From Thermoanaerobaculia bacterium (GTDB lineage: Bacteria; Acidobacteriota; Thermoanaerobaculia; UBA5066): a DNA stretch of 64,000 bases. The notes beneath the pieces are model-generated. The model had not been told where the DNA came from and made no database searches. It worked only from the letters and a program-made list of their open reading frames with translations. Numbering within the stretch: position 1 is the first letter of the stretch; each line of letters starts with the position of its first letter. Below are positions 6,326 to 55,949 of the stretch, piece after piece. The position numbers were made by a program, and so were the translations under genes. Location of the stretch: NCBI GenBank assembly GCA_963816185.1, contig CAWFJJ010000028.1, positions 384,001 to 448,000 on the forward strand. The letters are read 5' to 3'.

Positions 6326-7324
6326 TTACATTCCTCCGGCTCGGAGTTTCGCGGCGGCGAGGAGCGCTCCGATGTCGTCCGGCACCGGCGCCGTGAACGT
6401 CATCTTCTCGCCCGTGGTGGGATGCTTCAACGTCAGGCGCCAGGCGTGAAGCGCCTGACGCGGAAAGCTCCGGCAGAGATCGCGCAGAAGCTCGTCCTTG
6501 ATCCCTTTCCATCGGGGCGAGCCGTACGTGGGATCGCCGACGATGGGAAGGCGGAGCGCCTTGAGGTGAACGCGAATTTGATGCGTCCGGCCGGTGACGA
6601 GCGTGCACTTGAGGAGAGAAAGACCGGAGTGGGAACCAGAAGACTCGGAGAGGATTTCATAGAAGGTGGTCGACGGACGCCCCTCGGTTTTCGAGGCCGC
6701 CATGCGTTTCCTGTCGGCGGGATCGCGGCGGATCTTCAGGTCGATGCGCCCCTTTCTCAGCGGCGCCTTGCCGTAAACCAGGGCCAGATATTCCTTTTCC
6801 AGGAATCTCTCTCTTATGGCTCTCCCAAGGACAGCCATGGCCGTTTCGGTCTTTGCGACGACGAGGACCCCCGATGTGTCTTTGTCGAGCCGATGGACGA
6901 GTCCGGGCCTGTCGGCTGGCCCGGCCCACTCCTTCGAGCGATGGAGTAAGGCGTTCACGAGGGTCCCGTCGCGGTGCCCGACGGCAGGGTGCACGACGAG
7001 GCCGGGCGGCTTGTTCAGAACGAGGATTTCGGAATCTTCGTAAAGGGCGGAGAGAGGGATGTCCTGCGCCACGAGGTCGGGACGAGGAGGGGCAGGCGCG
7101 GGAAGGTGGACCAGGATCTCGTCTCCCGTCTTGACCTTCTCGGAGCTCTTCTTCGGTCTTCTCCCTCCGACCGAAACACAGCCGCTCTCGATCCACTCCT
7201 GGATCTTCGTCCGCGAGGCCTCGGGCAGGTCATTCAGGTGCCGGAGCAGAACTCTGTCGAGGCGCTCGCCCGCGTCGCCCCGGTCGGCGCGGATGGTGCG
7301 CCGCGGCCGGGGCGCGTCGGTCAC
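6326..7324 (-). CDS. rluD: RluA-family 23S rRNA pseudouridine synthase RluD
   Basis: S4 domain RLDRVL, NKPPGLVVHP, GLVHRLDKDTSG, TGRTHQIRVH, RQALHA; GTG overlaps the lgt stop. Confidence 0.92.
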   Translation of the reverse strand: MTDAPRPRRTIRADRGDAGERLDRVLLRHLNDLPEASRTKIQEWIESGCVSVGGRRPKKSSEKVKTGDEILVHLPAPAPPRPDLVAQDIPLSALYEDSEILVLNKPPGLVVHPAVGHRDGTLVNALLHRSKEWAGPADRPGLVHRLDKDTSGVLVVAKTETAMAVLGRAIRERFLEKEYLALVYGKAPLRKGRIDLKIRRDPADRKRMAASKTEGRPSTTFYEILSESSGSHSGLSLLKCTLVTGRTHQIRVHLKALRLPIVGDPTYGSPRWKGIKDELLRDLCRSFPRQALHAWRLTLKHPTTGEKMTFTAPVPDDIGALLAAAKLRAGGM

Positions 7325-8103
7325 GCGGCGGCGGGCGCGGGCGTCGTCTTGCGGCGCAGAGCCCAGAGGACCACCGCCACGGCGATGCCGCAAAGGGCGA
7401 TGAACTGCGACGTCGACATCACGCCGAACACCGACCCGCGCGGGTCGCCCCGGAAGATCTCGATCACGAAGCGGAGGAGCGCGTAGCCGAAGAGATAGCG
7501 CACGAAGGTCTCGCCCGAGTACCGGCGGCGCTCGAGAGCGACGAGAAGGATGCACAGGACGAGCGTGCCCACGGCCTCGTAGATCTGGGTCGGGTGAAGG
7601 GGAATGTCGAGCGGTACGCCCACGTTCTCGTGGGCCTTCGGATCGGTGAATGTGATCGCCCACGGGAGCGTACATTCGCGGCCCCAGCAGCAACCCGCCA
7701 GGAGGCATCCGACGCGGCCGAGGGATTGTCCGAGCGCGACGGAGGGCGCCGCGATGTCGGCAAAGGTGAAAAACGGGATCTCGCGCCTGCGGAGGAGCAC
7801 GACCGTGGCCACGAGCGCGCCGATCAGGCCGCCGTAGAACACGCCGCCGGCCCGCGCGAGATCTTTGAGACCGCTCCAGGAGGAGACGTACTGCGGCCAC
7901 TCCACGATCACGAGCAGGAGCTTGGAGCCCACGAGGCCCGACAGGAGAAGCCAGATGCCGACGTCGGAAGCGGCGTCCGGCGTGACGCCGAAAGAGGGGG
8001 CGCGCTTTCTCACGAGCCAGAGCCCCGCAAGGAAGGCGAGCGCCATCATCAGCCCGTAGCTCGGAAGCGCGAAGTTCCCGATGTGGATCAGCTCTGGGTG
8101 CAC
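7321..8103 (-). CDS. lgt: Prolipoprotein diacylglyceryl transferase
   Basis: HPELIHIG..SYGLM, GGVFYGG, GRVGCLLAGCCWG, HPTQIYE, RFVIEIFRGD. Confidence 0.93.
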   Translation of the reverse strand: MHPELIHIGNFALPSYGLMMALAFLAGLWLVRKRAPSFGVTPDAASDVGIWLLLSGLVGSKLLLVIVEWPQYVSSWSGLKDLARAGGVFYGGLIGALVATVVLLRRREIPFFTFADIAAPSVALGQSLGRVGCLLAGCCWGRECTLPWAITFTDPKAHENVGVPLDIPLHPTQIYEAVGTLVLCILLVALERRRYSGETFVRYLFGYALLRFVIEIFRGDPRGSVFGVMSTSQFIALCGIAVAVVLWALRRKTTPAPAAA

Positions 8104-8588
8104 GTCTCGGGCTCTTTCTCGGGGTGCCGCCAGATGTCCCAGGCGAGGAGGATGACGCCTACGCTGATCGCGCTGTCGGCCACGTTGAAGGACGGCCACT
8201 CCCAGCGGCCCGCGTAGAAACGCAGGAAGTCCGTCACGGACTGGAAGCGAATGCGGTCGATGAGGTTCCCGACGGCCCCGCCGAGGACCAGGGCGAGCGC
8301 CGTCTGCAGGCGCGTGAGCGTCGCGGGCGACGTGAGCGACCACGCGAGGACGCCGAGGAAGACCCCGACCGCCACCAGCGTGAGGATCGCGGTCCGCGCG
8401 GGTGAGTTCGTGAAGGCGAACAGGCCGAACGCCGTGCCCCTGTTCCTCACGTGCGTGAGATCGAAAAAGCCCCGGATGATCGGGATCGTTTCGTGAAGCG
8501 GAATCCGGGCGGCCACGATCGCCTTCGTGACCTGGTCCAGGACCACGACGGCAAGGGAGATTCCAAAATAGACCAGCCGGCGCGGCAC
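8088..8588 (-). CDS. lspA: Lipoprotein signal peptidase II
   Basis: LDQVTK, NRGTAFG, GGAVGNLIDR, VTDFL, WPSFNVADSAI; downstream of ileS. Confidence 0.95.
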   Translation of the reverse strand: MPRRLVYFGISLAVVVLDQVTKAIVAARIPLHETIPIIRGFFDLTHVRNRGTAFGLFAFTNSPARTAILTLVAVGVFLGVLAWSLTSPATLTRLQTALALVLGGAVGNLIDRIRFQSVTDFLRFYAGRWEWPSFNVADSAISVGVILLAWDIWRHPEKEPETCTQS

Positions 8589-8598
8589 GTCCCGGATT

Positions 8599-11500
8599 CT
8601 ACTCGCCGACGACGCGGCGGCAGCGCGCGCAGATGCCGCTCGGCTCGACGTCGGTACGCACCTGCCAGCAACGCGGACATTTGGCACCCTCGGCGGGACG
8701 GACGGCGATGGCGTCCTCTTCGCCCTCCCGCACGACCGACGGTGTTCCAAAGACGTCGGCGAGTTCTTCTTCTGAGAGGGAAAGAACGGCGAGCGCTTCG
8801 TCGACGGCGCCGCCCCGCCCCACGACGACGGTGGCCTGAGAGGCGGACCCGACTTTCCCCTCTCTTCGGAGCGGCTCGAGGACCTGCAGGAAGTCCGCTC
8901 GGGCCGCCAGGATGCGTCGCCATGCCTTTCTTTCATTCGAAGAGATCTCCGGGAGCTTTACATCGTCCCAGCTTCGCAGGAAAAGCGCGGAGGGATCCGC
9001 CGCATTTCCCGGGATCGCCTCCCAGATCTCTTCCGCCGTGAACGGGCAGATCGGCGAAAGGCCGAGGGCGATGGTCCTGGCGAGCTGGTAGGCGGCTGTC
9101 TGCGCCGAGCGCCGCACGGGATCGTCCGCAGCGAGGACGTAAAGCACGTCCTTTCGCACGTCACACCAGAACGCCGACAGGTCCGTCGTCACGAGATCGA
9201 GAAGGCGTCGCGACACCACGTGGAACGCATAGTCGCGGTAGGCGTCCCTCGCATCGCCGGCAAATTGCGCCGCGACGTCGAGCACCCACCGGTCGAGGGG
9301 CTCGAGTCGGCTTTCCGGCACGCTGTCCTTCGCCGGGTCGAAGTCGGACAGGTTCGAGAGGAGAAAGCGCGCCGTGTTGCGGATCTTGCGGTAAGCCTCG
9401 GACGTCCGCTTGAGGATCTCGTCGGAGACGGGGTCGTCGTTCGTGTAGTCGGCGGAAGCGACCCAGAGCCGCAGCACGTCGGCGCCGTCCTTCTTGATGA
9501 CGTCGTGCGGGTCCACCGTGTTTCCGAGCGACTTCGACATCTTCCGGCCGTCTCCCGCGACGACGAACCCGTGTGTGAGCACCGCGTCGTAGGGCGCGCG
9601 GTTCGTCAGCGCGACGGAGGTCAGCAACGACGACTGGAACCACCCGCGGTGCTGGTCGTGCCCCTCGAGGTACATGACCGGGACCGGGGGGTGTGCCGTG
9701 TACGGGTCCTCGATACCGTAGTCGCCCGAGCGGAGGACGGCCGCGTGCGACACCCCCGAGTCGAACCACACGTCGAGGATGTCCTTGACCTTCTCGAAGT
9801 TCGCACCGCCACAGCGCGCGCAGGAAGCAGAGGACGTCGAGGTCGACGATGAAGAGAAAGAAGAAGAGGAAGAGAAAGAGGAAGACGAAGAATTGCTTAG
9901 AAAGTAAGACGGGGGGAAGGCGGCGTCGTCATACCAGGCATCCGCTCCGTGTTCGCGAAATGTCCCTCTTACCCTTTCAAAGAATTCTCCTCTTTCTTTC
10001 CTCTCTCGATCGCTGACTTCTCCCTCGACCGACGGGTAGTGCGAAACGACGCCCTTCTCCATGCAATCGGTGCACCTCAGAAACGTGATGGGCGAGCCCC
10101 AGCGGCGCTGGCGGGAGATCGTCCACTCGAGGCGGTTGTCGACCATCGCGCCGATGCGGTTTTCGCTGTAGGACGGGATCCACTCCACCCGGTCGTGGAT
10201 CTCGGACATCGCGCGCTCGCGGAGTGCGCCGAGGTCGATGAACCACTGGTGGGTCGCGCGGAAGATGACGGGCTGCTTGCACCGCCAGCAATGGGGGTAG
10301 GAGTGAGAAAGAGATTTCTTCGAAAGGAGGAGAGATCCGGAGTGGTCCTTGCCCGGACGTCCCGCGAAGCTCGACGCCTCGGCGGGCGTCGTCGCGAGCG
10401 CCGCGAGGACCGCGTCGTTCGCGCTCTCGTCGGGCGTTTTCGGGATGACGACTCTCTTCCCGCGCAGGAACTCCGGCGCGTTCGCGTCGTAGTACCCGCC
10501 TTCGTCGACCGGGCAGAGAGCCGGGTCGTCCACCTTGAAGGCGTGCCTCCTCACGACCTCGTAGTCGTCGCGCCCGTGGCCCGGAGCCGTGTGGACGAGG
10601 CCCGTGCCGTCCGTCGTCGACACGTGCTCGCCGAGGAGGAATCCGAAATTGGTTTCGGACGACGCGGCGAAGGGACGTCGATAGACGAGGCCGGCGGCGC
10701 CTAGGGTCGCGCCGCTTTTCTTCGAATGGGGAAGAGGGCTGGCGTCGCGCCAGCCGAGCGCGGCCGTCACTTGCGGGACGAGCGCAGCCGCGACGAGATA
10801 AGCGGCCCCAGGCTCGTCTTCCTTTCTGAGAAGAATGTATTCGATGCTCGGGCCAAGGGCGATCGCCCGGTTTGCGGGGAGAGTCCACGGCGTGGTCGTC
10901 CAGATGAGGGCGAACAGCCGCAGTGTGCCGGTCGCGTTTGCGAGGTCGGGCCACACCGCTTTCCAGGAATCTCCGTCCAACGGCATCGCGACGTAGACCG
11001 ACGGATCGGTCCTGTCCTCGTACTCGACCTCCGCTTCCGCGAGGGCGGTGCGGTCGCGCACGCACCAGAGGACGCTCTTGAATCCGAACGTGACGAGCCC
11101 TCTGTCCACGAAGCCGCCGAAAGCCCTGGCGATCTCGGACTGATAGGAGAAGTCCATCGTGCGATAGGGCGCCTCCCACCTGCCGAGGATTCCGAGGCGC
11201 TTGAAGTCGGAGCGCTGGTCGTCGATCCACCTCTCCGCGAACTTCCGGCACGCCCGGCGGATCGCGACGTCGGACATCTCGCGCTTCTTCGGCCCGAGCT
11301 CCTTGTCCACGCCCAGCTCGATGGGGAGGCCGTGGCAGTCCCAGCCGGGCACGTACGGTGCGTCGAGGCCCGCGAGAGTCTTGCTGCGGACGACGAGGTC
11401 CTTCAGGATCTTGTTCATCGCCGTGCCGATGTGGATCTTGTTGTTCGCGTACGGCGGGCCGTCGTGCAGGAGGAAACGCGGGGCGCCGGCGCGCGCTCGC

Positions 11501-11631: not shown

Positions 11632-11743
11632 GGTGAAGCCGCGAAGGTTACGCGGTCGGCCCGTGCCGGGCAAGGCTCAGGCCTTCATTTGATTCCAACT
11701 GATCATGTGGCGGACGCAAACGATCCCTTAGACTGCGCCGCGC

Positions 11744-12688: not shown

Positions 12689-13719
12689 AGAGAAAAGGGA
12701 ACAAGAACTCTTTCTTATATACGGCGGCTGCTGATGCAGCCGCCGATAGAAGAAAGTCTTCTCCCCGAATGGTCGATGTCAAGGGCGTGCTTCGCGCGCC
12801 GCGCAGCGGTCGCAGACCCTTGACATCGGCCATTCGGGGAATACGGTCGTCGACCAAGTCTTTGCGGCGCATCGGCCTCATCGGCGGCTCGGGTCTTTAT
12901 TCACTTCCCGGCCTCGAGATCACTCGCGAAATCGGGCTTTCGACGCCCTTCGGCGACCCCTCCGACTCTTTCTTTCTAGGAAGTCTCTCTTCGGTCCCTG
13001 TCGCATTTCTCGCGCGTCACGGACGTCACCATTCGTTCCTGCCTTCCGAGATCAACTACCGAGCGAACGTCTGGGGGTTCAGGAAGCTCGGCTGCTCGTG
13101 GCTTCTCTCGGCCTCGGCCTGCGGCTCGATGAAGGAGTCCTACGCGCCGGCCGACATCGTCCTGCCGGACCAGTTCCTCGACTTGACGAAGCGGCGCGTC
13201 TCGACGTTCTTCGGAGACGGCTGTGCGGCGCACGTGTCGTTCGCGCACCCCGTTTCGGCCGTTCTTCTCGACGCTGTGGAGGCGGCCGCGAAGGCGGAAG
13301 GGGCCGTGTGCCATCGAGGCGGAACGTACGTGTGCATCGAAGGACCCCAGTTCTCGACGAAGGCCGAGTCTCTGCTCTACCGTTCCTGGGGCGCGGACGT
13401 GATCGGGATGACGAACGCCACCGAGGCAAAGCTCTGCCGCGAGGCGGGGATCGGCTATGCGTCGATGGCGCTCGTCACGGACTACGACTGCTGGCACGAG
13501 GAGCAGGCCGCGGTCTCGGTGGAAGCTGTCCTCGACGTCCTGAAAAGAAACGCCGGCACCGCGAATCGCGTCCTCGCGAACGCCGTTCGCCGCCTCGACC
13601 CGGACAGCCCGAGCGACTGCGCGGACGCCCTCGAGTGGGCCGTTCTCACGCCGAGGAACCGGATCAGTCCCGCCGCCTCGAAGCGCCTCGCGCTTCTTCT
13701 GAACAAGGACGAGAGATGA
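12685..13719 (+). CDS. mtnP: S-methyl-5'-thioadenosine phosphorylase with a 59-aa repeat-derived N-terminal extension
   Basis: IGLIGGSGLY, FLARHGRHH, NYRANVW, EGPQFSTKAES, VIGMT, VTDYDCW; ATGA overlap with the upstream stop; alternative TTG start at 12862. Confidence 0.93.
   Translation: MKRKGNKNSFLYTAAADAAADRRKSSPRMVDVKGVLRAPRSGRRPLTSAIRGIRSSTKSLRRIGLIGGSGLYSLPGLEITREIGLSTPFGDPSDSFFLGSLSSVPVAFLARHGRHHSFLPSEINYRANVWGFRKLGCSWLLSASACGSMKESYAPADIVLPDQFLDLTKRRVSTFFGDGCAAHVSFAHPVSAVLLDAVEAAAKAEGAVCHRGGTYVCIEGPQFSTKAESLLYRSWGADVIGMTNATEAKLCREAGIGYASMALVTDYDCWHEEQAAVSVEAVLDVLKRNAGTANRVLANAVRRLDPDSPSDCADALEWAVLTPRNRISPAASKRLALLLNKDER
12711..12856 (+). repeat. Palindromic element copy 1 (hairpin A + T-shaped hairpin B)
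   Basis: A: CGGCGGCTGCTGATGCAGCCGCCG at 12722-12745; B: CCCCGAATGGTCGATGTCAAGGG..CCCTTGACATCGGCCATTCGGGG at 12763-12839. Confidence 0.95.
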
Positions 13720-14726: not shown

Positions 14727-14748
14727 AGCTGATACACTCCTGGGTCCA

Positions 14749-16634: not shown

Positions 16635-19190
16635 ATGCAACGCACCGCGACGGCGACCACGAAGGCCGACGAAATCCTCAGGATCGAGGCGAAGTGGCGC
16701 GACCGCTGGGAGGCGGACCGCGCCGCATTCGTGGATACGACGAAGCCCGCGGGGGACGGAACATACCTCCTCGTCATGCTTCCTTATCCCTCGGGCGACC
16801 GCCTGCACGTCGGGCACGCGCGCACATATTTCCTGACCGACGCGCTCCAGCGCTTCCTGCGCCAGACGGGCGTGACCGTGTTCTGCCCGATGGGCTGGGA
16901 CGCGTTCGGCCTGCCTGCCGAGAACTACGCGATCCAGAAGGGCATCCATCCGCGCACCTCCACGCTCGCGAACATCGCGGCCATGAAGGAGCAGTTCCGG
17001 ACGTGGGGCGTTCTTTACGACTGGACGAAGGAAGTCACGACCTGCGAGCCCGAGTACTACCGCTGGAACCAGTGGTTCTTCCTGAGGCTCCTCGAAAAAG
17101 GCCTGGCGGTCCGCAGGAAGGCCGCGGTGAACTGGTGCCCGTCGTGCGAGACCGTCCTCGCGAACGAGCAGGCCGAGGGCGGCGTCTGCGACCGGTGCGG
17201 CACTGCGGTGGTGCCCCGCGAGCTCGAGCAGTGGTTCCTGAAGATCACCGACTACGCCGAGCGCCTGCTGGACGGCCTCGACACGCTCCGCAAATGGCCC
17301 GAGAAGGTCGTCACGATGCAGCGCAACTGGATCGGCAAATCCACGGGCGCCGATCTGGATTTCGCGATCCCGAAGCTGAACGAGACGGTCCGCGTCTTCA
17401 CGACGCGCCCGGACACCGTCTTCGGCGCCACGGCGCTCATCCTCGCGCCCGAGCACGCGCTCGTCCCGCGCCTTCTCGAGGGCCATCCGAAGCGGGCCGA
17501 GCTGGAGGCCTGGGTCAATTCCGTGCGCAGCCAGGAGCGCATCGTCCGCGAGGCCGAGGGAGCCGAGAAGGACGGCCGCGACACCGGCCGCACGGCGATC
17601 AACCCCTTCACGGGGAAGGAAGTGCCCGTGTGGCTCGCGAACTTCGTCATCGCCGACTACGGCACGGGCGCGCTCATGGCGGTACCCGCGCACGACACGC
17701 GCGACTTCGAGTTCGCGAAGAAGTACGGCATCCCCATCGTCAGGGTGATCGAAGAGGGGAAGAGAGAAAAGAAGGAAGATTTGCTTAGAAAGGAAGAGGG
17801 GGAGGGCGCAGCGGCGGCCAGCGGCGACGCGGCTTTGACAGGCCTTCCATACACGGGCGAGGGCCCGCTCATTGCCTCCGGACCATTCACAGGAATCTTC
17901 TCTTCTCTTGCCCGAGAATTCATCGCAGCCGATGCCGCGAATCGCGGCATCGGCGGGCCGCGCGTGCGGTATCGGCTCCGCGACTGGCTCATTTCGCGTC
18001 AGCGCTACTGGGGCACGCCGATTCCCATGATCCACTGCGAGAAGGATGGCTGGGTGAGTGTGCCGGAGAAGGACCTGCCGGTCGTGCTGCCGCCTGACGC
18101 GCCGTTCACGGGCAAGGGCGGCAATCCGCTCGAGAAGGTCGCTTCGTTCGTCCAGACGACGTGCCCTTCGTGCGGAGGCCCGGCCAGGCGCGAGACGGAC
18201 ACGATGGACACGTTCGTGGACTCGTCCTGGTATTTCCTCCGGTACATTGACCCGAAGAACGGCGCGGCGCCCTTCGATCCCGCAATCGTGAGGGAATGGG
18301 CGCCGGTCGACCAGTACATCGGCGGCATCGAGCACGCGATCCTCCACCTCCTGTACGCGCGGTTCTTCACCCGCATCCTGAAGGACCTCGGCCTCGTGAC
18401 GTTCGAGGAGCCGTTTTCGGCTCTCTTCAACCAGGGCATGATCACGCGCCTGTCCCCGACGGGCCGCGTGGAGAAAATGTCGAAGTCGCGGGGCAACTCG
18501 GTGTCTCTCGACTCGCTCATCGCGGAGAAGGGAGCCGACGCCGTGCGCGCGTTCGTCCTCTTCCTCGGGCCGCCGGAGAAGGACGCCGAGTGGAGCGACG
18601 AGGGCATCAGCGGGCCGGAGCGCTTCCTCTGGCGCGTGCGGGGCGCCGTGGACCGGTTCCTCGCGACGGGCGCCGATCCGCAAGCACAGCCGGCGGCGGC
18701 CGACACGCCCGCGGCGCGCGCGCGCCACATGGCGATCAAGAAGGTCACGGAGGACTTCCGGGCGTTCTCGTTCCACACGGCCGTGGCGCACCTCATGGAG
18801 CTGCTCAACGGCGCGGCGGTCCTCGTGAACGACGCGGGCGCGGACGCGGGGGAGACCGCGACGACGCTGCGCACGCTCGTCACGCTCCTCCATCCCATCG
18901 CGCCGCACCTGTCGGAGGAGCTGCACGAGAGGATGGGCGGCACGAAGAGCCTCCTTGCCTCGGGCTGGCCGACCTACGATCCGGCGCTCGCCGAGATGGA
19001 AGAGGCTTCGATCGCCGTGCAGGTGTCGGGGAAGGTGCGTGCCGAGATCAAGCTGAGAAGAGGATCTTCCGAGAAAGAGGCGCTGGCCGCCGCCCAGGCT
19101 GAGGCGGCGCTCTCGCGGTGGCTGGAAGGAAAGCAGATCGTCAAAACCATCTGGGTTCAGGATCGACTGTTGAACATCGTCGTGCGATGA
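16635..19190 (+). CDS. leuS: Leucine--tRNA ligase
   Basis: [51 protein letters not shown]. Confidence 0.98.
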
Positions 19191-19194: not shown

Positions 19195-19896
19195 ATGCTG
19201 CTTTCGGATTTTTCTGATATGCGGCGGCGGCTGATGCAGCCGCCGATGGATGGCAACGTGCCCTCGGCTGGCCGGAGTCAAGGGTCTTCGACCGCTACGC
19301 GGCGCGCGAAGCGCGCCCTTGACACCGACCAGCCGAGAGCTATCCCTCTCTCTTTTTCCTTCAAAGAAATCTCTCTTTCTTCTCTTTCCTTTCTTGTCTT
19401 TCTTGCCTTCGCTGCCTCTTCGTCCGGCTGCGGGTACACGCTCGTGGGGACCGGGTCGAGCGCGGTGCCCGTCGGCGTCAAGACGGTATACGTGCCGACG
19501 TTCATCAATGAGACGACGGTCGTGGGCCTCGAGCAGCGCCTCACGGACGCCGTCATTCGCGAGCTTTCCGCGCGTGGCCGTCTCAAGCCCGTGTCGGACA
19601 GGGGGGCGGCGGATTCGGAGCTGTCCGGGCAGCTGACATCCGCGTCGGTCGCCCCCGTCCGCTTCGACGCGAACGGAATCGCCGTCGAATATCAGGTGAC
19701 CGTTACCGGAAAGATCGTTCTCACCGAGAAGGCCACCGACAAGCCCATCTTCTCCGAGCCCGCTTACCTGTTCCGGCAGCCATACACCGTGCCGTCGAGC
19801 GCCAGCTCGTATTACGACCGAGAGCGCGAGGCCATCGAGGCGATGGCCCGCCCCTTCGCGCAGAACCTCGTCACGACGATCCTGGAAGGATTCTGA
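19195..19896 (+). CDS. lptE: LPS assembly lipoprotein LptE with a repeat-derived N-terminal extension
   Basis: SSGCGY lipobox at residue 79, VYVPTFINET..LEQRLTDAVIREL, ending ILEGF; directly after leuS. Confidence 0.85.
   Translation: MLLSDFSDMRRRLMQPPMDGNVPSAGRSQGSSTATRRAKRALDTDQPRAIPLSFSFKEISLSSLSFLVFLAFAASSSGCGYTLVGTGSSAVPVGVKTVYVPTFINETTVVGLEQRLTDAVIRELSARGRLKPVSDRGAADSELSGQLTSASVAPVRFDANGIAVEYQVTVTGKIVLTEKATDKPIFSEPAYLFRQPYTVPSSASSYYDREREAIEAMARPFAQNLVTTILEGF
19211..19375 (+). repeat. Palindromic element copy 2 (A + B with inverted interior, then TTCAAAGAA and a pyrimidine tail)
   Basis: A at 19211-19246; B CTCGGCTGGCCGGAGTCAAGGG..CCCTTGACACCGACCAGCCGAG at 19263-19337. Confidence 0.92.
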
Positions 19897-26369: not shown

Positions 26370-26594
26370 ATGCGGCGGCTGCTGATGCAGCCGCCGAATA
26401 CTTGAAATCTGCTTCCCGAATGGCCGATGTCAAGGGCGCGCTTCGCGCGCCGCGGAGCGGTCGCGGACCCTTGACATCGGTCATTCGGGGAATACGGCCT
26501 CTCTGCAAAATCTCTTCTCTTCCTCCTTTCCTTTCTTCCACTTCTAAGAAAATCCTCTTCTTCTCTTCTTCTTTGTCTTTCAAAGAATTCCCCT
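26314..26594 (+). repeat. Palindromic element copy 4 (degenerate A + A + B + pyrimidine tail with two TTC-N3-GAA cores)
   Basis: A' at 26314-26347, A at 26373-26396, B at 26413-26492, TTCTAAGAA at 26542, TTCAAAGAA at 26579. Confidence 0.95.
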
Positions 26595-37108: not shown

Positions 37109-38389
37109 ATGAGAGCGCTCTTCCGGGGTGACGGTTGGGGACTGGGAGAGAGGAGAGGACCGGGGACCGGGGATTTCTTAGAAAGAGAAGAACCGGGGAA
37201 AGAGATCTTCTTAGAAGGTGAAGAGAGGGTCATTTGCGCCGAGAGGCTGGAGCAGCTGCCCGACATGCTCGCCTCGCTCGACGAAATCGCATCGTCGGGC
37301 GATTTGAACCTGATCGCAGCGGGGTTCGTCTCCTACGAGGCGGGCGTTTACCTCGAAGGATCGACGGCGCTCGCGCGCCGGCATGAATTTCTTCCTTTCG
37401 CGGAATTCTTCCTCTTCGATACCCGCCGCTCCGGCGCCGCACGACGCATGTCGCCGCCTCCCGCCGCTTCCGCCCCATTCACCTTCGAAGAATCGGTACG
37501 CGCGGAGCGCGTGTTCTTTTCGGACCCTTCGGCTCGCGAAACGGAGCCGTCGCTATGCCCGGACGCGTGGAGAAACGGAGTAGACGCCATCCGGGACGCC
37601 ATCGCCCGCGGCGACGTCTATCAGGTCAACCTCACGCGCCGCACGCGCTTCGCGGCCCGCGTCGAGCCCTTCGCCCTCGCGCGCGCCCTCTACGGCGACA
37701 GCCCCGTGCCCTTCGCCGTGACGCTCGTCGGGAACGAGTGGGCCGTCGTGTCGAATTCGCCGGAGCTCTTTCTCGACGTGGACCTTGCGGCGCGCCGCGC
37801 GGTCACCAAGCCGATCAAGGGCACGATCGCGCGGGGCGCGACCGACGCCGAGGACGCCGGCCGGCGCCGCGAGCTCCTGGCCTCCGCGAAGGATGCGGCC
37901 GAGAACGTGATGATCGTGGACCTTCTGAGAAACGACCTCGGCAAGGTGGCTGAGAGAGGGCGCGTCGAGACGACCGCCATGAGATCGTTGAAGTCGTTCC
38001 GCCATCTCCATCACCTCGAATCCACGGTGGAGGCCAGCTTGAAGCCGGACGCCCGGCTCTCCGACGTCCTCCGCGCCACGTTGCCGGGGGGCTCGATCAC
38101 GGGTGCCCCGAAGCGCGCGGCGCTGCGTTTCATCCACGACCTCGAGAACGTGCCGCGCGGCGCGTATTGCGGGGCCGCGGGGTTCGTCCGTGGCGACGGC
38201 CGGGCGGTCTTCAACGTGGCAATCCGGACGGCGATCCTCGGTCGGGATACAGTGGACTACCACGCAGGAGGCGGAATCGTGTGGGACTCGAACGCGGAGG
38301 CCGAATGGCGCGAGACGAAGGCGAAGTCCCGGGAGTTTGGGGCGGCGATGGCGGCCCTCGGCGCGGGCGAGGTGCCCCATGAACCTTGA
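37109..38389 (+). CDS. pabB: Chorismate-binding enzyme (PabB / anthranilate synthase component I-like)
   Basis: GDVYQVNL, SNSPELF, KPIKGT, AENVMIVDLLRNDLG, PGGSITGAPK, NVAIRT, GGGIV; followed by a PabC-like gene. Confidence 0.85.
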   Translation: MRALFRGDGWGLGERRGPGTGDFLEREEPGKEIFLEGEERVICAERLEQLPDMLASLDEIASSGDLNLIAAGFVSYEAGVYLEGSTALARRHEFLPFAEFFLFDTRRSGAARRMSPPPAASAPFTFEESVRAERVFFSDPSARETEPSLCPDAWRNGVDAIRDAIARGDVYQVNLTRRTRFAARVEPFALARALYGDSPVPFAVTLVGNEWAVVSNSPELFLDVDLAARRAVTKPIKGTIARGATDAEDAGRRRELLASAKDAAENVMIVDLLRNDLGKVAERGRVETTAMRSLKSFRHLHHLESTVEASLKPDARLSDVLRATLPGGSITGAPKRAALRFIHDLENVPRGAYCGAAGFVRGDGRAVFNVAIRTAILGRDTVDYHAGGGIVWDSNAEAEWRETKAKSREFGAAMAALGAGEVPHEP

Positions 38390-50342: not shown

Positions 50343-50349
50343 GGACAGA

Positions 50350-50453
50350 GAGAATTCGGATTTCTTAGAAAGTGTGAGGAGCCGCCGCGCCTTCTCGAAG
50401 TGAAGGCGCGCCTGCCGATCCCGCGTCCTTCAGCCTTCTAAGAAATCGTTCTC
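50350..50453. repeat. Inverted pair of TTCTWAGAA motifs enclosing a GC hairpin
   Basis: GAGAATTCGGATTTCTTAGAAAG .. GCGCCTTC-TCGAAGT-GAAGGCGC .. CCTTCTAAGAAATCGTTCTC. Confidence 0.8.
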
Positions 50454-50466
50454 TTCGAAACCGCGA

Positions 50467-50472
50467 TAAACT
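50467..50472 (+). promoter_or_regulatory. Putative -10 box of rnpB
   Basis: TAAACT 5 nt before the P1 helix of RNase P RNA. Confidence 0.55.
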
Positions 50473-50477
50473 GCGCA

Positions 50478-50881
50478 TGACTCGGGCCGGACAGGCGGTC
50501 GCCGCTCTCGACGCTTCGGCGGAAGGAGGGGAGGAAAGTCCGGACTCCCGCGGGCAGCGTGCCGGAGAAATTCCGGTCGGGGCAACCCGAAGGAAAGTGG
50601 CACAGAAAACACACCGCCGACGCGCCGCAAGGCGCAGGTAAGGGTGAAAAGGTGCGGTAAGAGCGCACCGCGGTTCCGGCAACGGGACCGGCAGGCGAAA
50701 CCCCACGCGGAGCAAGGCCAAATAGGGTGACGGAAGGGGCGCCCGCCCCCGCGGTTTCGGCCGACGTCACCGGGTCGGTCGCTCGAGCCCGTTCGAAAGA
50801 GCGGGCCTGGAGGAATGACCGCCGGCTGGAAGGCGCGAGCCGACCGGTTACAGAATCCGGCTTATCGTCCGGCCCGAGTCA
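50478..50881 (+). ncRNA. rnpB: RNase P RNA (type A)
   Basis: GAGGAAAGTCCGG, GGTAAGGGTGAAAAGGTGCGGTAAGAGCGCACC, GAGCAAGGCCAAATAG, ACAGAATCCGGCTTA; P1 TGACTCGGGCCGGAC/GTCCGGCCCGAGTCA. Confidence 0.97.
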
Positions 50882-50885
50882 CTCT

Positions 50886-50913
50886 CCGGGGGCTTGGCTT
50901 CGCGCGCCCCCGG
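50886..50913 (+). terminator. Hairpin after rnpB
   Basis: CCGGGGGC..GCCCCCGG stem; no U-tract. Confidence 0.4.
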
Positions 50914-50969
50914 CCCCCCGGCTGCGGCGCACATCGAAGTCATCCGGCTTCGGCTAAACTCCCCGGACC

Positions 50970-51752
50970 GTGAAGGTCGTCGTCAAGTCCGGCGCACCGG
51001 GTGGATTCACCGACTACCTCGCTCGCTTCTCGGCCGGCCAGCCCATCTTCGGGGAGGGCGAGGTCGGCACGGAGATGTTCGTCATCCAGTCCGGCACGGT
51101 GGAGATCTACAAACGCAGCCGGCGCAACGAGGAAAAGCTCCTCGCGACGCTCGAGAAGGGCGACTTCTTCGGCGAGATGTCGATCCTCGAGGACGTCCCC
51201 CGCACGGCTTCGGCACGCGCGAAGACCGACTGCGAGCTCGTGCGTATCAACCAGTCGACGTTCGACGAGATGCTCCGCCACAACGCGGAGATCGCCGTGC
51301 GCATGCTTCGCAAGCTCTCCCGTCGGTTGCGCGAGACGACGAAGCTGCTCGAGCAGTCGACGGGCGCTGCCCCCGCTCTCGACGAAAGCTCGTCCGACAT
51401 CTTCGCGAAGGTGTCCGAGCGCCACGACATCTTCCGCCTCGTCGCCGCGAGCGGCGAGGAGTTCTTCCTGAACCGCGACGGAGAGACGACCGTGGGACGA
51501 GTCGATCCGGTCACGGGCATCAAGCCGGACGTGGACCTCGCGAATCTCGATACGCAGCGCTCCGTCTCGAGGCGGCACTCGAAGATCGTCCGCGAAGGCG
51601 GCGAATTCCGCGTCGTCGAGGAGATCGGTACCATGAACGGCACGTTCGTGAACGGCGCGCGCATCGTCACGGGACAGCCGATCACGATCAAGGACGGAGA
51701 CCGCACGCGCTTCGGCCTCGTCGACCTCACGTTTCGCGTCAGCAAGGCGTAG
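50970..51752 (+). CDS. Cyclic nucleotide-binding + FHA domain protein
   Basis: cNMP: GDFFGEMSIL..PRTASARA; FHA: VGR..VSRRH..MNGTFVNG. Confidence 0.9.
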   Translation: MKVVVKSGAPGGFTDYLARFSAGQPIFGEGEVGTEMFVIQSGTVEIYKRSRRNEEKLLATLEKGDFFGEMSILEDVPRTASARAKTDCELVRINQSTFDEMLRHNAEIAVRMLRKLSRRLRETTKLLEQSTGAAPALDESSSDIFAKVSERHDIFRLVAASGEEFFLNRDGETTVGRVDPVTGIKPDVDLANLDTQRSVSRRHSKIVREGGEFRVVEEIGTMNGTFVNGARIVTGQPITIKDGDRTRFGLVDLTFRVSKA

Positions 51753-51757
51753 GAGAG

Positions 51758-53947
51758 ATTTCCGTCCCGCTCCCGCTCCTCGCGAATCTTCCCGGCGTCG
51801 GCGCGGCGCGCGCCCGCGAGCTGGCCGAGGCCGGGGTCGAGACGGCGGTCGATCTCCTTCTCCACCTTCCGTTCCGCTACGAGGACCGCACGCGCATCGC
51901 GCCGATCGCGGCGCTCGTGCCGGAGGGGCCCCCGACGACGGTCAAGGGCACGGTCCTCTCGGCGCGCCTCATCCGGACGCGGCGCCGCGGCTTCACGATC
52001 TTCGAGGCGATCCTCGACGACGGCTCCGGCCCTCTCCGCCTCGTCTTCTTCAACCAGCCGTACCTCCAAAGATGGATGACATCGAAGAAGACCTTCTGGG
52101 TCTACGGCGTCGCAACCCAGTCGGCGCGTTATCGGCGCGGTCTCGTCATGGAGAACCCACAAATTGAAGAGTTAGTAGAAGAACCAATAGAAGATTTCTT
52201 AGAAGGGAAAGAGGGAAAGGGCGCCGTCACGGGAAAGGGCGAAGGCGCGGGCAAAGGCGAAGGCACAAGGCGCGCCGCAGATCCTCTCTCTGTCGGCCGC
52301 GTCGTGCCGATCTACCGCAAACTCCCGGGACTCACTCCACGGATGCGGCGGCGAACCGTCCATCACCTTCTAAGAAACTTTGCAGACCATCTCCCGGAGC
52401 GACTTCCTCTCTCGCGCGAGAGGGAGCAAGAATTCCCTTCTCTTTCCGACTCGCTGAGAGAAGCCCACTTCCCGGGCAGCGCCGGGGGCTCCGCGGACGC
52501 GGAGGAGTGGACGGAGCGCCGTTCGCCTTACCTCCACCGCCTCGCCTACGAGGAGTTCCTCGAGTTTCAGGTCGGATTGCAGCGCCGCCGCCGGGAGCGC
52601 GCCGCCGTACCCGCTCCCGTCCTGTCGGCAGACGACGCGATTCGCGCGCGACTCAAGGGTGCCCTTCCGTTTACGCTGACGGGGGCTCAGAAGCGCGTGA
52701 TTCGGGAGATCGGCGGCGACTTCCGCGCGGGCCGCCCGATGCGCCGGCTTCTCCAGGGCGACGTAGGAAGCGGAAAGACGATCATTGCCGTCCTCTCGGC
52801 GATCCTCGCCGCCGAGTGCGGCTTCCAGACCGCGCTCATGGCGCCGACCGAGATCCTCGCCGAGCAGCATTTTTCGTCGATCTTCCGGATCTTCCGCAAG
52901 ACGCGGTTCCGGGCCGAGCTCCTGACCGGCCGCGTGAAGGGGAAGGCCCGCGCGCAAGTCCTCGACGCGCTCGCCGGCGGCCGCGTCGACATGCTCGTCG
53001 GGACGCACGCGCTCCTCGAGGACCCCGTCGACTTCCGTCGCCTCGGCCTCATCGTGATCGACGAGCAGCACCGCTTCGGCGTCGCGCAGCGGACGACGAT
53101 CGCGGCAAAAGCGCACCCCGCGGAAGCGCGCCCGCACCTTCTCGTCATGTCCGCGACGCCGATCCCGCGCTCTCTTGCCCTGACCCTTTACGGCGACCTC
53201 GACGTCTCGACGCTCGACGAGAAGCCGCCGGGCCGCACGGCCATCTCGACGCGCGTCCTTCCGGAAACGGAGCGCGCGGCCGCGTTCCGCGAGATCGAAG
53301 CCGAGATCCGCGCGGGAGGGCAGGCCTACGTCGTCGTTCCGCTCATCGAGGAGTCGGACAAGATCGAGGCGCGCGCCGTCGAGAAGCACGCGGCCGAGAT
53401 CCGGAAAGCCCTTCCCATTCGCCGCGTCGGTGTCGTCCACGGCCGACTTCCGCCCGACGAGCGCGAGCGCACGATGGGCGAGTTCGCGGCCGGAAGGCTC
53501 GACGTCCTCGCGGCGACGACCGTCATCGAGGTCGGCGTGGACGTCCCGAACGCGTCGTACATGCTCGTCGAGAACGCGGAGCGCTTCGGTCTCGCGCAGC
53601 TCCACCAGCTGCGCGGTCGCGTCGGGCGCGGCAGGCGCGCTTCGCGCTGCGTGCTGCTGTTCGGCCCGAAGGTCTCGCCGGAATCGCGCGAGCGGCTCGG
53701 GGTGCTCGAGAGGACGGACGACGGATTCGTCGTGGCCGAGGAGGACCTCAAGCGCCGCGGCCCCGGCGACGCGCTCGGGACGCGGCAGAGCGGCGTCCCG
53801 CTCTTCCGCGTCGGAGACCTCATCCGCGACGTCAGGTGGATGAAGGAGGCGCGCGACGAAGCGCAGAAGATGATCGCGGACGGGCGCGATGCCGCGTTCC
53901 GCGAGCCGCTCTTCCTTCGCGCCGCCGCCTTGCCGGCCGCGGACTGA
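51758..53947 (+). CDS. recG: ATP-dependent DNA helicase RecG (start uncertain)
   Basis: DLLLHLPFRYEDR, LQGDVGSGKT, IDEQHRFG, MSATPIPR, QLRGRVGRG, GTRQSG. Confidence 0.97.
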   Translation: MSVPLPLLANLPGVGAARARELAEAGVETAVDLLLHLPFRYEDRTRIAPIAALVPEGPPTTVKGTVLSARLIRTRRRGFTIFEAILDDGSGPLRLVFFNQPYLQRWMTSKKTFWVYGVATQSARYRRGLVMENPQIEELVEEPIEDFLEGKEGKGAVTGKGEGAGKGEGTRRAADPLSVGRVVPIYRKLPGLTPRMRRRTVHHLLRNFADHLPERLPLSREREQEFPSLSDSLREAHFPGSAGGSADAEEWTERRSPYLHRLAYEEFLEFQVGLQRRRRERAAVPAPVLSADDAIRARLKGALPFTLTGAQKRVIREIGGDFRAGRPMRRLLQGDVGSGKTIIAVLSAILAAECGFQTALMAPTEILAEQHFSSIFRIFRKTRFRAELLTGRVKGKARAQVLDALAGGRVDMLVGTHALLEDPVDFRRLGLIVIDEQHRFGVAQRTTIAAKAHPAEARPHLLVMSATPIPRSLALTLYGDLDVSTLDEKPPGRTAISTRVLPETERAAAFREIEAEIRAGGQAYVVVPLIEESDKIEARAVEKHAAEIRKALPIRRVGVVHGRLPPDERERTMGEFAAGRLDVLAATTVIEVGVDVPNASYMLVENAERFGLAQLHQLRGRVGRGRRASRCVLLFGPKVSPESRERLGVLERTDDGFVVAEEDLKRRGPGDALGTRQSGVPLFRVGDLIRDVRWMKEARDEAQKMIADGRDAAFREPLFLRAAALPAAD

Positions 53948-53982
53948 CGCGCGTTCCGGGTTAACATCCGCCGCCGCGCGGT

Positions 53983-54648
53983 GTGACCGCGCCCGAAGGC
54001 GCCGTGGACCCGCAAAAAACGCTCGAAATCATCATCCAGATCGTCGTGCTGCTCTTCGCCGTCTCGTTCCACGAGTCGGCTCACGGCTACGTGGCGATGA
54101 AGTGCGGCGACAACACGGCCCGCGACCTCGGGCGCATCACGATGAATCCGCTCAAGCACCTCGATCCGATCGGCAGCCTTCTTTTCCCGGCCTTGCTCGC
54201 GTTCTCGGGCCTGCCCGTCTTCGGCTGGGCGCGGCCGGTGCCTGTCTCGCTGCGCGGCGTGCGGAACCCGCGCCGCGCGAACCTCCTCGTGTCGGCGGCG
54301 GGGCCCCTGTCGAACGTGCTGCTGGCCGTCATCTTCGGGTTCGCTTTCGCGATCCTCAAGCGCTTTTTTCTCGTGGACGGCGATCCGGCGATCTTGCAAC
54401 CGCTGTTTCTCGTCGCGGGAGCCTCGGTGCTGGTCAACGCTTCTCTGGCGATCTTCAACCTGCTGCCGATTCCTCCGCTGGACGGATTCGGCGTCGTGGA
54501 GAGCCTGGCGCCTCCGACCGCCATCCCCTCGATCATCTTTCTGCGGCGGTATGGATTCATCATCCTCATCGTGCTGATGTTCACCGGAGTCCTCGGGTTC
54601 ATCATGCGACCCGTCCAGAATCTCGTCATCCAGTGGCTGAGGTCCTGA
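53983..54648 (+). CDS. Site-2 protease (M50) family protein
   Basis: HESAH, AGPLSN, FNLLPIPPLDG. Confidence 0.93.
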   Translation: MTAPEGAVDPQKTLEIIIQIVVLLFAVSFHESAHGYVAMKCGDNTARDLGRITMNPLKHLDPIGSLLFPALLAFSGLPVFGWARPVPVSLRGVRNPRRANLLVSAAGPLSNVLLAVIFGFAFAILKRFFLVDGDPAILQPLFLVAGASVLVNASLAIFNLLPIPPLDGFGVVESLAPPTAIPSIIFLRRYGFIILIVLMFTGVLGFIMRPVQNLVIQWLRS

Positions 54649-55644
54649 TGTCCGCCGTTTCGAGGAGAGTCGTTCTCTCCGGCCTCCGCCCGACGGGCCG
54701 CGTCCACCTCGGGAACTACTGGGGAGCGGTGAAGAACTGGGTGGATCTGCAGGCCGACTACGACTGCCGGTATTTCGTCGCCGATCTCCATGCGCTCACG
54801 ACCGACTACGCGGACACCTCCGCGATCCGCGAGTCGACCCTCGAGGCCGTGACGGACTGGCTCGCGGTCGGCCTCGACCCCGAGAAGTCGGTGATCTTCG
54901 TGCAATCGCGCGTCCCGCAGACGGCGGAGCTGGCGCTCGTCTTCGGGATGATCACGCCCCTCGGCTGGCTCGAGCGCGTGCCGACCTACAAAGAGCAGAT
55001 CGAGCAGCTTCGCGAGCGCGACCTCGGGACGTTCGGATTCCTCGGCTATCCGGTTCTCATGACGGCCGACATCGCGCTCTACCGCGCGCATTACGTGCCG
55101 GTCGGCAAGGACCAGGAAAGCCACCTCGAGATCTGCCGCGAGATCGTCCGGCGCTTCAACGGCTTCTACGGCGACGTCTTCCCCGAGCCGCAGCCGCTCT
55201 TCACGGCCACGCCGAAGGTGCCGGGGCTCGACGGCCGGAAGATGTCGAAGACCTACAACAACGCGATCGCCCTCTCCGACTCGGCGGCCGAGGTCGAGAA
55301 GAAGGTCATGAGCATGGTCACCGACCCCGGCCGCGCGCGGCGCGCCGACCCGGGGAATCCGGACGTCTGCAACCTCTACCCGTTCCACCTCCTCTACTCG
55401 CCCCCCGAGGAGCAGAAGGTCGTGGACTTCGAGTGCCGCACGGCGGCGCGCGGCTGCGTCGACTGCAAGAAGCACCTCATCCGCAACATGAACGCCGCGC
55501 TCGAGCCCATCCGGCAGAAGCGCGCGGAGATCACGGCGAAAAAAGACTTCGTGAAGAGACGTGCTCGAACAGGGCAGCGCGAGAGCGAGAGATATTGCTT
55601 CGGAGACCATGGAGAGGGTTTCTGATGCGATGAAGTTGCTGTGA
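54648..55644 (+). CDS. trpS: Tryptophan--tRNA ligase; frameshift near 55556
   Basis: SGLRPTGRVHLGNY, YPVLMTADI, VPVGKDQ, KMSKT; C-terminus VLEQGSARARDIASETMERVSDAMKLL in the shifted frame. Confidence 0.96.
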
Positions 55645-55949
55645 TGTACGGCCAGGAAGATTCTCTTAGAAGGGTTAATGAGCGCGGCGCTCGGTCGCGC
55701 GGTGGAGCGGCGACCAGCCCTCTTCACTTTCTAAGAGGAATTAGATTCGGATCTCTTATATGCGGCGGCTGCTGTGCAGCCGCCGATAGTAGAAAATCTT
55801 TCGCTCGAATGGCCGGCGTCAAGGGCGCGCGTAGCGCGCCGCTAAGCGGTCTTCGACCCTTGACTCCGGCCGTTCGAGCGACGTCCGCCCCTCTTCACTT
55901 TCTAAGAAATCTTCATCCTCTTCTTCCTCTTTCTTCTTCCAATGGCTGA
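55641..55949 (+). CDS. Repeat-derived bridging ORF (102 aa) between trpS and scpA
   Basis: Start overlaps the trpS TGA (GTGATG); stop lies just past the scpA ATG (ATGGCTGA); contains element copy 5. Confidence 0.45.
   Translation: MMYGQEDSLRRVNERGARSRGGAATSPLHFLRGIRFGSLICGGCCAAADSRKSFARMAGVKGARSAPLSGLRPLTPAVRATSAPLHFLRNLHPLLPLSSSNG
55656..55940 (+). repeat. Palindromic element copy 5 (inverted TTCTWAGA pair, A, B, tail)
   Basis: A at 55763-55785, B at 55801-55881, 19-bp direct repeats at 55718-55736 and 55889-55907. Confidence 0.95.

Follow-up and report, generated by a model that had tools for sequence, protein, structure and literature searches.

Divergent pairs of an over-represented AT-rich DNA word in genes and spacers of a genus of Thermoanaerobaculia

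What keeps a nine-letter AT-rich word, TTCTWAGAA, at eight places of a GC-rich stretch of 64,000 nucleotides, between genes as well as inside housekeeping genes? The stretch (the window hereafter) is G000:C28:384001-448000, i.e., positions 384,001 to 448,000 of contig CAWFJJ010000028.1 from a Thermoanaerobaculia bacterium whose assembly comprises 5.09 Mb in 30 contigs, has 67% GC and is 95% complete. A preliminary description, made from the letters alone, had listed the eight copies together with twelve near-matches and had proposed a DNA-level signal: a site for a nucleoid- or chromosome-organising protein, an uptake-sequence-like tag, or the target or terminus of a nearby hairpin element. 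We find that the word is the centre of a longer asymmetric unit and that units stand in divergent pairs, which is the main structural fact of the system and was absent from that account. Our results support the view that the motif is a DNA-level signal and not a peptide or codon-usage effect. Our preferred explanation, held with slightly less than even confidence, is a selected or driven recognition signal for a factor of this lineage, arranged in back-to-back pairs and largely built in place.

All eight exact copies are present where they had been listed (Table 1), and so are the twelve near-matches, eleven of which deviate by one mismatch and one, at 6797, by two. Under a weight matrix derived from the exact copies of the genome, 11 of the 12 near-matches score above 14 bits, with 6797 below. 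The estimate that far fewer than one copy per 64 kb should arise by chance proved right, as 100 dinucleotide shuffles of the window contained 0.06 copies on average and never more than 2. Genome-wide, TTCTWAGAA occurs 337 times, in balanced orientation (172:165), where Markov models of orders 0 to 3 expect 3.7 to 5.6 copies, an excess of 60- to 90-fold. Against a median count of 1 for the 2,520 nine-mers that share its composition, it ranks first. Of all nine-mers seen at least 150 times, the only ones more over-represented are a homopolymer artefact and shifted forms of the word itself. Inside 2,685 called genes (3.62 Mb), 101 copies stand against 1.4 +/- 1.1 (maximum 4) expected from 20 shuffles that keep each protein sequence and the codon usage, which corresponds to about 70-fold enrichment. 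The excess thus persists under every null model tried, Markov or codon-aware.

An assembly artefact, the other way in which the motif might have dissolved, is at odds with its presence in all 24 sampled genomes of the genus. The read-derived evidence comes from the contigs of four runs (X1, X2, X15 and X16). Contigs of soil DNA bridge the pair at 50362-50444, and the two public soil DNA runs concerned may derive from the same sample as this genome. The assembly has flaws of its own. At 1147-2240, contig C10 has two homopolymer A/T runs in succession, of 1,028 and 65 bases, almost certainly produced by the assembly, and they inflate the counts of poly-A/T nine-mers. Identical pair elements with identical flanks recur on the contigs C14 and C24 (C14:41639 = C24:143238) and on C25 and C27 (C25:162388 = C27:6233), and the assembly therefore contains redundant or duplicated stretches.

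Alignment of the 337 copies on their central A/T confirmed the extended consensus of the preliminary description and sharpened it. A unit is about 30 nt long and asymmetric: a flank rich in C/T lies on the inner side of the core TTCNAAGAA, and a CT tract poor in G on its outer side. In consensus order it reads CCCYYTTCMCY, TTCTAAGAA, A, and then a C/T tract that extends to about +30 with G at 2-20%. On the outer side, arms end in fuzzy CT tracts. Core variants comprise TTCTAAGAA (327), TTCGAAGAA (154), TTCAAAGAA (43), TTCTAAGCA (35) and others, for which reason the core is properly written TTCNAAGAA. A weight-matrix scan above 18 bits returned 743 units, or about one per 6.8 kb, compared to 152 in a reversed-genome control.

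The units are not independent of each other in orientation. Among neighbours at most 400 bp apart, 226 are arranged '-+', 39 '++', 38 '--' and 11 '+-'. A divergent partner at 30-400 bp exists for 433 of 567 strong units (76%), a convergent one for 20. Read along the plus strand, a '-+' pair consists of GA tract, core, inner flank, bracketed DNA, inner flank, core and CT tract, such that the tails point outward. We refer to the two units as left and right arm. The arms are spaced 45 to about 300 bp apart, most often near 75 bp. This layout recurs in 80 kb of the related genome G011, which holds six '-+' pairs, and the positions listed for the sister genus are likewise '-+'. The bracketed segment itself is not a repeat: after exclusion of nine of the 226 pairs as too short, 195 of the remaining 217 have a segment without similar counterpart, and the other 22 are accounted for by paralogous kinases or duplicated contigs. 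Units are clumped along the genome: in 20-kb bins the ratio of variance to mean is 3.5, and 65 of the 224 bins hold no unit. A polar signal of the Chi or KOPS type was rejected on the balanced orientation and on the 76% of strong units in divergent pairs, which are symmetric and thus carry no polarity. Resemblances to primase, Xer and Hin sites were dropped as superficial.

The arms of a pair are inverted copies of one consensus and hence able to base-pair, which raises the question of a stem-loop that would act at the level of RNA or single-stranded DNA in mRNA processing, stability, termination or priming. Three of four pairs folded do show an arm-to-arm stem in their minimum free energy structure, and the one at 50344-50466 reaches z = -3.4; the other two, both at z = -1.0, fold no better than shuffled sequences, and the arms of the fourth pair stay unpaired. 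More telling is the comparison of partners. In 217 pairs (nine of the 226 were dropped because their arms are too close), in no segment do partner arms resemble each other more than shuffled partners do (|z| <= 1.6). A T/G covariation at core position 4 appears with an odds ratio of 2.05 (p = 0.048) when a group of paralogous kinases with arms 93 bp apart is kept, and falls to 1.5 (p = 0.32) without them. Given the missing arm likeness, the missing covariation and the weak folds, each arm looks like an independent copy of the consensus and not like one half of a selected hairpin. In the region 49000-58000 no terminator-like or sigma-70-like site overlaps a unit, and an Rfam scan of the window returned RNase P RNA only. 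A stem-loop function is therefore very improbable in our judgement. An intrinsic terminator was rejected because none of the four terminator-like sites in 49000-58000 overlaps a unit, and a known RNA family because the Rfam scan, at gathering cut-offs, yielded nothing but RNase P RNA.

Inverted arms with an asymmetric centre and a short bracket also recall the repeats on which a site-specific recombinase acts in order to flip the enclosed segment, as in invertons, including intragenic ones. The '-+' geometry would survive such inversion, and the core does serve as an insertion point for a hairpin repeat described below, whose 5' end abuts, in about 20 of 35 copies judged by eye, a GA tract ending in a TTCTT-like half core. 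Many pairs, however, belong to essential genes (ileS, leuS, ligA) whose protein would be destroyed by a flip, and synapsis would have to take place over very short segments of 45-100 bp. In the contigs of the four runs no joint with a change of strand was reported at a pair, a weak argument as contigs drop rare variants; the recG pair stretch (52010-52610) has little cover in all four. We consider an inverton scarcely credible.

Our home-made gene caller mis-set starts near units, so that statements on genes of the window rest on Pfam. Of the 226 pairs, 77 lie wholly in a single gene with good support and 72 entirely between genes, and the remaining 77 extend across gene ends or weak calls. 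Exact copies fall inside called genes in 166 of 337 cases, 79 in sense and 87 in antisense orientation, and for intergenic copies the downstream gene runs in the same direction 97 times and in the opposite direction 74 times. On these figures a promoter or 5'-leader element was rejected; there is also no sigma-70-like site in 49000-58000. A random 20 of the 73 pair-bearing genes include seven Ser/Thr kinases, and the rest comprise ABC transporter parts, ligA, xseA, a biotin carboxylase (accC), a fadB-like gene, ggt, an alpha-2-macroglobulin gene and others. A Pfam family was assigned to 19 of the 20, the exception being locus L122. No functional class of genes stands out as favoured by pairs. 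The Ser/Thr kinases form a large paralogous family with fusions to PD40 or TPR repeats (e.g., C24:602899-622894), and in each paralogue the two arms of a pair occupy the same positions of the kinase domain, at a distance of 93 bp.

How the units inside genes are read can be seen from core position 4, where T would create a stop codon in one sense and one antisense frame. We considered units above 20 bits, 186 of them in strong genes and 266 clearly intergenic, and dropped 203 ambiguous ones. In sense units with TAA in frame, T occurs in 0 of 31 cases (G 27, A 4), compared to 9 of 12 and 37 of 49 in the other sense frames. Antisense units with TAG in frame have T in 5 of 28 cases, those in the other antisense frames in 30 of 45 and 21 of 21, and intergenic units in 200 of 266. 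The central T is thus exchanged for G or A exactly where a stop codon would arise, and genic units are translated. As all six reading frames are used, selection does not act on a single peptide.

The gene ileS (8599-11673, minus strand) holds seven units of at least 14 bits and was followed through the genus. The alignment comprises 23 species with 75-84% protein identity to the window copy; the broken copies of G008 and G006 were left out, and G007 was unmatched. Units occupy the same places of ileS in the 23 species, and their rare AT-ending codons are kept. Both arms of the pair 9894/9976 are conserved in the 23 orthologues, and the run that encodes PLPHSKKSG, which is an arm of the pair 10718/10824, is near-invariant at codon level, including rare CCT and CTT. 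Where the residue of a column is conserved, the most frequent codon has A or T at its end in 20 of 34 columns inside units and in 19 of 610 outside. GC3, the GC content at third codon positions, is 0.44 inside units and 0.90 outside (p = 2e-10). The share of the commonest codon, 0.84 inside and 0.78 outside, does not differ significantly (p = 0.10). The units of ileS are thus held at nucleotide level in orthologues, a check that had been suggested with the preliminary description. The codons rare in this window and the peptides that it had reported for ileS, leuS, recG and the pabB-like open reading frame (ORF) were likewise found. Its central claim of a DNA-level signal is borne out by the use of three frames on two strands, by retention against the GC3 bias in 23 species and by the roughly 70-fold excess over the codon-preserving null.

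Two further observations concern ileS. The CT tail of one unit encodes a poly-Ser tract (9840-9900, minus) whose length in the 23 species lies between 0 and about 25 residues, a microsatellite-like variation within an essential enzyme. The ileS match of G011 (L002) contains one in-frame TGA, and the copies of G008 and G006 are split or frameshifted, by sequencing error or real change.

At the level of genomes, exact copies number 56-346 in each of the 24 sampled members of the genus and 2-45 in all six genomes of the sister genus. Eight other genera of the family have 0-8 copies (22 genomes) and other families of the order 0-4 (12 genomes), a statement that is unchanged without G019 and G024. 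The motif is therefore restricted to the genus, with few copies in the sister genus and near-absence elsewhere. Among the literature matches listed for the word, which concern eukaryotic STAT sites, primers and the like, there is no bacterial genome motif. An 18-nt arm word matches five IMG/VR contigs; the core occurs once in each, which is about chance expectation, so no conclusion on phage origin is drawn.

Two routes could have led to this distribution, assembly of units in place or insertion of ready-made elements. For ileS the signs point to units that were written in place by substitution. In IleS proteins of other families (n = 5; without G019 the other four agree), the arm positions of the pair 9894/9976 are occupied by FFD and FL without any motif, and the bracketed GADAWY region is native. 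In the genus, the arms overlie the native FFE and FL positions and bracket native IleS sequence, with the poly-Ser tract outside the right arm. Between fixed anchors the IleS of the genus is only about 12 residues longer than that of the outgroups. A net gain of about 12 residues is less than an element of at least 135 nt would bring, and thus no whole element was inserted in ileS. In the sister genus ileS has the same length, with GC-rich codons at the arm places. At residues 447-457 the motif sits one codon apart between species without a change in length, and neither the basal species of the genus nor the sister genus has it.

Other sites have the appearance of insertions. Compared to LeuS of other lineages, the leuS element is an insertion of 20-50 residues whose internal part varies freely between species. 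The pair at 50344-50466, which is located upstream of the RNase P RNA gene (rnpB) at a distance of 38 nt and whose bracketed segment is unique in the genome, is absent in G011, where the flanks are otherwise contiguous. Only three of 22 genus species (G000, G031 and G034) have this pair, at a length of 114-123 bp, with conserved arms and much diverged brackets. It is bridged in contigs of the DNA runs X1 and X2 and skipped by contigs of relatives in the RNA-library runs X15 and X16. Between trpS and scpA about 293 bp are present in this genome only, among the three compared (G000, G011 and G003), and in G011 the two genes overlap by ATGA. Genic units of the window are shared with G011 and G003, while conservation of intergenic sites is partial. 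No target-site duplication is evident at the single clean empty site, upstream of rnpB.

These latter sites speak for an old selfish family akin to MITEs (miniature transposable elements with inverted repeats) or Rickettsia palindromic elements (RPEs), whose arms would be terminal inverted repeats, whose whole copies would have entered spacers and, in frame, coding sequences of the genus ancestor, and whose interiors would since have drifted, with the hairpin repeat as a younger relative. Such a family would explain inverted arms around short DNA, the clean presence and absence upstream of rnpB with brackets far more diverged than arms, the 293-bp trpS-scpA insert, the leuS insertion and the copy range of 56-346 within the genus, and RPEs are known to be tolerated in frame. 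It fits poorly with copies that share no internal sequence, 195 of 217 bracketed segments being unique, and with ileS arms that enclose native conserved residues at a net gain of about 12 residues. The one-codon offset of the motif at unchanged length speaks against it as well, and no target-site duplication is evident at the rnpB site, though arm ends are fuzzy. Selfish DNA in neutral decay should also have lost the AT-ending codons that are kept in 23 species in a gene with a GC3 of 0.90. Unpaired '-' and '+' units at distances of 1.2-2.3 kb delimit six regions from which 14 ORFs were taken, none with a transposase domain in a limited search of this one genome. Y1 transposase (PF01797) has no match in this genome and matches in three of 26 genus genomes, with the motif in all of them. 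The motif is not a classical MITE, and an old family of this broader kind is in our view unlikely.

A separate mobile element occurs beside the units. It is a repeat of 123 nt with two GC-rich hairpins, probably the hairpin element of the preliminary description, with 35 full copies in the genome (55 BLAST segments) and no match to an Rfam family. Its copies number 0-43 in the genus, with presence in 16 of 26 genomes, and this patchiness indicates a young, patchy mobile family. In the window it lies at 12713-12836, 19203-19337, 26364-26487, 55754-55876 and 57376-57491, with a partial copy at 23123-23176. Of the 35 full copies, 19 have, at most 150 nt away on their 3' side, a unit of like orientation (distance 5-141 nt), 8 have an opposite unit on the 5' side, 2 have a same-orientation unit on the 5' side, 12 have no unit and none shows the reverse geometry. 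At about 12713, 19203 and 57376 the repeat replaces a left arm that is intact in G011, G003 or both. For the right arm at 12974, the intact left arm is found in both relatives. For the one at 19360, left arm and bracketed DNA are replaced, and the leuS-lptE spacer of both relatives holds a complete pair with a GC-rich bracketed segment. Our data support the conclusion that the TTCNAAGAA pair elements are an insertion target of the hairpin repeat, in fixed orientation. Of the two roles that had been suggested, target and terminus, the first is upheld by the fixed orientation in pairs and the three left-arm replacements. The second is contradicted by the varying distance to the right-hand unit (5-141 nt) and by the presence of the motif in all genus genomes as opposed to 16 of 26 for the repeat.

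Which known systems does the motif resemble? HIP1 (GCGATCGC) of cyanobacteria is portrayed, in passages of PMC5861425, as a lineage-restricted palindrome, 15- to 300-fold over-represented in and between ORFs at a density that 'exceeds one motif per gene'. In the same passages it is conserved between genomes and held by selection, with no peptide, RNA or gene-regulatory role, and a chromosome-level role is proposed (PMC5861425). Our motif shares with HIP1 a hyper-abundant palindromic core (60-90x) that is conserved in ORFs at nucleotide level, as seen in ileS. Unlike HIP1, it has an AT-rich core in a genome of 67% GC and long asymmetric purine/pyrimidine flanks, is about ten times rarer, and is organised in divergent pairs.

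Doublets of repetitive extragenic palindromic sequences (REPs), known as REPINs or bacterial interspersed mosaic elements (BIMEs), consist of two inverted short units and a spacer, with hundreds of copies and a genus-specific sequence, according to passages of PMC3337134. The predominance of '-+' over '+-' pairs (226 to 11), the hundreds of copies and the genus-specific sequence are common to our motif. REPs are extragenic, whereas 77 of 226 pairs here are wholly genic, with Pfam support in ileS, leuS, recG and 19 of 20 sampled genes. Each REP is a GC-rich stem-loop, whereas no compensatory change links the arms here. REPINs need a RAYT transposase, a Y1 enzyme not found here and present in three of 26 genus genomes, and the spacers of our pairs are unique DNA. 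REPs are also targeted by other mobile DNA, as our motif is by the hairpin repeat. RPEs are repeats that lie in frame in unrelated housekeeping genes and add surface-loop peptides. The leuS element looks like such an in-frame insertion; RPEs, however, share a full-length consensus of 100-150 bp, while only arms are shared here, and some arms here overlie native residues and are kept at synonymous sites, unlike RPEs or MITEs.

The uptake sequences of Pasteurellaceae (uptake signal sequences, USS) and Neisseriaceae (DNA uptake sequences, DUS) are thought to accumulate by substitution, as stated in parts of PMC2817400 and PMC1939737. Likenesses to our motif include a core with weaker flanks, lineage specificity, both orientations, genic as well as spacer locations and tolerant positions in compatible frames. 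The motif differs by its lower density, by divergent pairs that look obligate and enclose a gap of 45-300 bp, and by its clumping. HIP1 and the uptake sequences are the nearest analogues, with a doublet layout that recalls REPINs.

An uptake-like signal in the strict sense would imply a competence receptor with a preference for unit-bearing DNA, so that biased uptake and recombination (molecular drive) would spread and maintain the units. The strong core with weaker flanks, the near-equal orientations (172:165), the genus specificity, the genic units in every frame with frame-compatible variants, the positions conserved between orthologues and the construction by substitution are all as expected, and so is the patchy rnpB pair, whose carriers are not nearest to each other by IleS identity. 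ComEC is present; as it also occurs in 10 of 14 control genomes, it is uninformative. Known uptake sequences occur about once per kb, so the density of one unit per 6.8 kb (743 in 5.09 Mb) is low. Uptake bias alone predicts neither the 76% of strong units in divergent pairs of fixed orientation nor the clumping described above. We rate this possibility as decidedly unlikely.

The explanation that we prefer is a more general one. Each unit of about 30 nt would be a double-stranded DNA site for a putative sequence-specific factor of the lineage, and the sites would be used two at a time, back to back, around 45-300 bp of any local DNA. They would be made largely in situ, by substitutions and small insertions at tolerant positions such as loops, linkers, protein N-termini and intergenic spacers, and would then be held by purifying selection or a sequence-biased drive. 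From sites of this kind one would expect an action at chromosome level and not the regulation of single genes, along the lines proposed for cyanobacterial HIP1 and for uptake sequences. The sites could organise the nucleoid or its topology, or serve self-recognition when DNA is taken up or recombined. We infer a protein reader for each arm, a two-sided reader behind the pairing and a benefit to the cell.

Several points weigh against this recognition signal. The reader protein is putative, and binding, methylation and uptake are hypothetical. If two bound proteins were to make contact by looping, 45-100 bp would be a short distance, which leaves the need for pairs unexplained. The six-fold range of copy number within the genus fits mobile DNA as well, and some elements are insertion-like, namely the rnpB-upstream pair, the complex between trpS and scpA and the element in leuS. 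Unit density is uneven between contigs (0.5-2.4 per 10 kb). The direction of change between genus and sister genus is ambiguous, as the sister genus may have lost the motif. Selection was tested in one gene in 23 species, next to a three-way synteny comparison over 64 kb, and gene calls outside the window, which come from a codon log-odds caller, are crude. None of the readings accounts for the need for pairs.

A stronger version of the same idea, which we regard as possible but doubtful, would see in the motif a new class of signal: a two-sided site, written by substitution into essential genes and spacers, with which a dedicated genus factor would mark about 370 brackets per chromosome, either for chromosome organisation or for recombination or uptake that acts on the brackets. 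Few lineage-wide DNA words are maintained at nucleotide level in genes, the main examples being uptake sequences, Chi and HIP1, and the function of HIP1 has been debated for decades. The motif adds an independent case from an uncultured soil acidobacterial genus. Its architecture, with asymmetric units, obligate-looking divergent pairs and unique DNA in between, has no described parallel in HIP1, Chi or the uptake sequences. More than 25 species genomes, a six-fold copy range, a low-copy sister genus and a repeat that lands on the core provide natural contrasts, which allow a search for the reader by phylogenetic profiling and a measurement of selection versus drive. On a practical note, the units add low-complexity Ser- or Glu/Lys-rich stretches and rare codons to housekeeping proteins and mislead gene callers at gene 5' ends.

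Table 1. Units, pairs and associated features of the window (coordinates are window positions; scores in bits from the weight matrix unless stated otherwise).
Feature	Position	Strand	Score	Context
Unit core	6656..6664	-	23.5	In pseudouridine synthase gene (minus; ORF 6326-7897, Pfam PseudoU_synth_2)
Weak partner of the 6656 unit	6797-6805	+	<14 (19.8 in G011)	Both arms of the pair conserved in G011 and G003
Weak unit TTCGAAGAG	8936..8944	+	16.6	In ileS, about residue 911; in an AT-rich island kept across the genus
Divergent pair	9894-9902, 9976-9984	-, +	28.7, 26.9	In ileS
Unit	10316..10324	-	25.9	In ileS; peptide LLLSKKS, just before the HSYPHCWRC motif; shifted by one codon between species at equal length, absent in basal species
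Divergent pair	10718-10726, 10824-10832	-, +	16.7, 19.7	In ileS
Right arm	12974..12982	+	23.2	5' part of PNP_UDP_1 phosphorylase gene; left arm replaced by hairpin repeat 12713-12836
Left arm	17782..17790	-	30.5	In leuS; right arm deleted in this genome, present in G011 and G003 (three-genome alignment)
Right arm	19360..19368	+	32.6	Between leuS and lptE; left arm and bracketed DNA replaced by hairpin repeat 19203-19337
Two tandem right-arm units	26542, 26579 (26542..26587)	+	35.5, 25.7	Between tonB-like and tolB-like genes; exact copy at 26542; hairpin repeat 26364-26487 on the inner side (G011 alignment; Pfam on neighbours)
Two tandem left-arm units	37175, 37208 (37175..37216)	-	30.2, 37.5	5' region of pabB-like ORF; both exact copies
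Complete intergenic pair element	50344..50466; cores 50362-50370, 50436-50444	-, +		65-nt bracketed segment; both exact copies
RNase P RNA, bacterial class A	50483-50880	+	265.8 (Rfam; cut-off 100)
Divergent pair	52196-52204, 52368-52376	-, +	37.5, 30.2	In recG; both exact copies; conserved in G011
Intergenic complex	55663-55671, 55729-55737, 55900-55908	-, +, +	29.5, 25.5, 39.4	Between trpS and scpA; exact copy at 55900; also holds hairpin repeat 55754-55876
Hairpin repeat with degenerate unit 57490-57498	57376..57498	minus		Ordinary pair at this place in relatives, including G011

Some features of Table 1 deserve a remark. The tandem units of the pabB-like ORF encode the peptides GDFLEREE and EIFLEGEE and lie upstream of a divergent thioesterase gene; the Pfam domain Chorismate_bind starts only at residue 152, which makes the true start of the pabB-like gene uncertain. 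The recG pair is placed between wedge and helicase domains, with RecG_wedge extending to residue 431 and DEAD beginning at 599 (Pfam, ORF 50894-53944). In the trpS-scpA complex, the CT tract of the unit 55900-55908 reaches the start codon of scpA. Outside the units, a PAS/GAF histidine kinase gene (20090-22552, within 19898-22567) has no syntenic counterpart in G011, and G003 matches it only in part, at 68% identity. The RNase P RNA gene shows by far the highest contig depth of its 9-kb stretch in both RNA-library runs.

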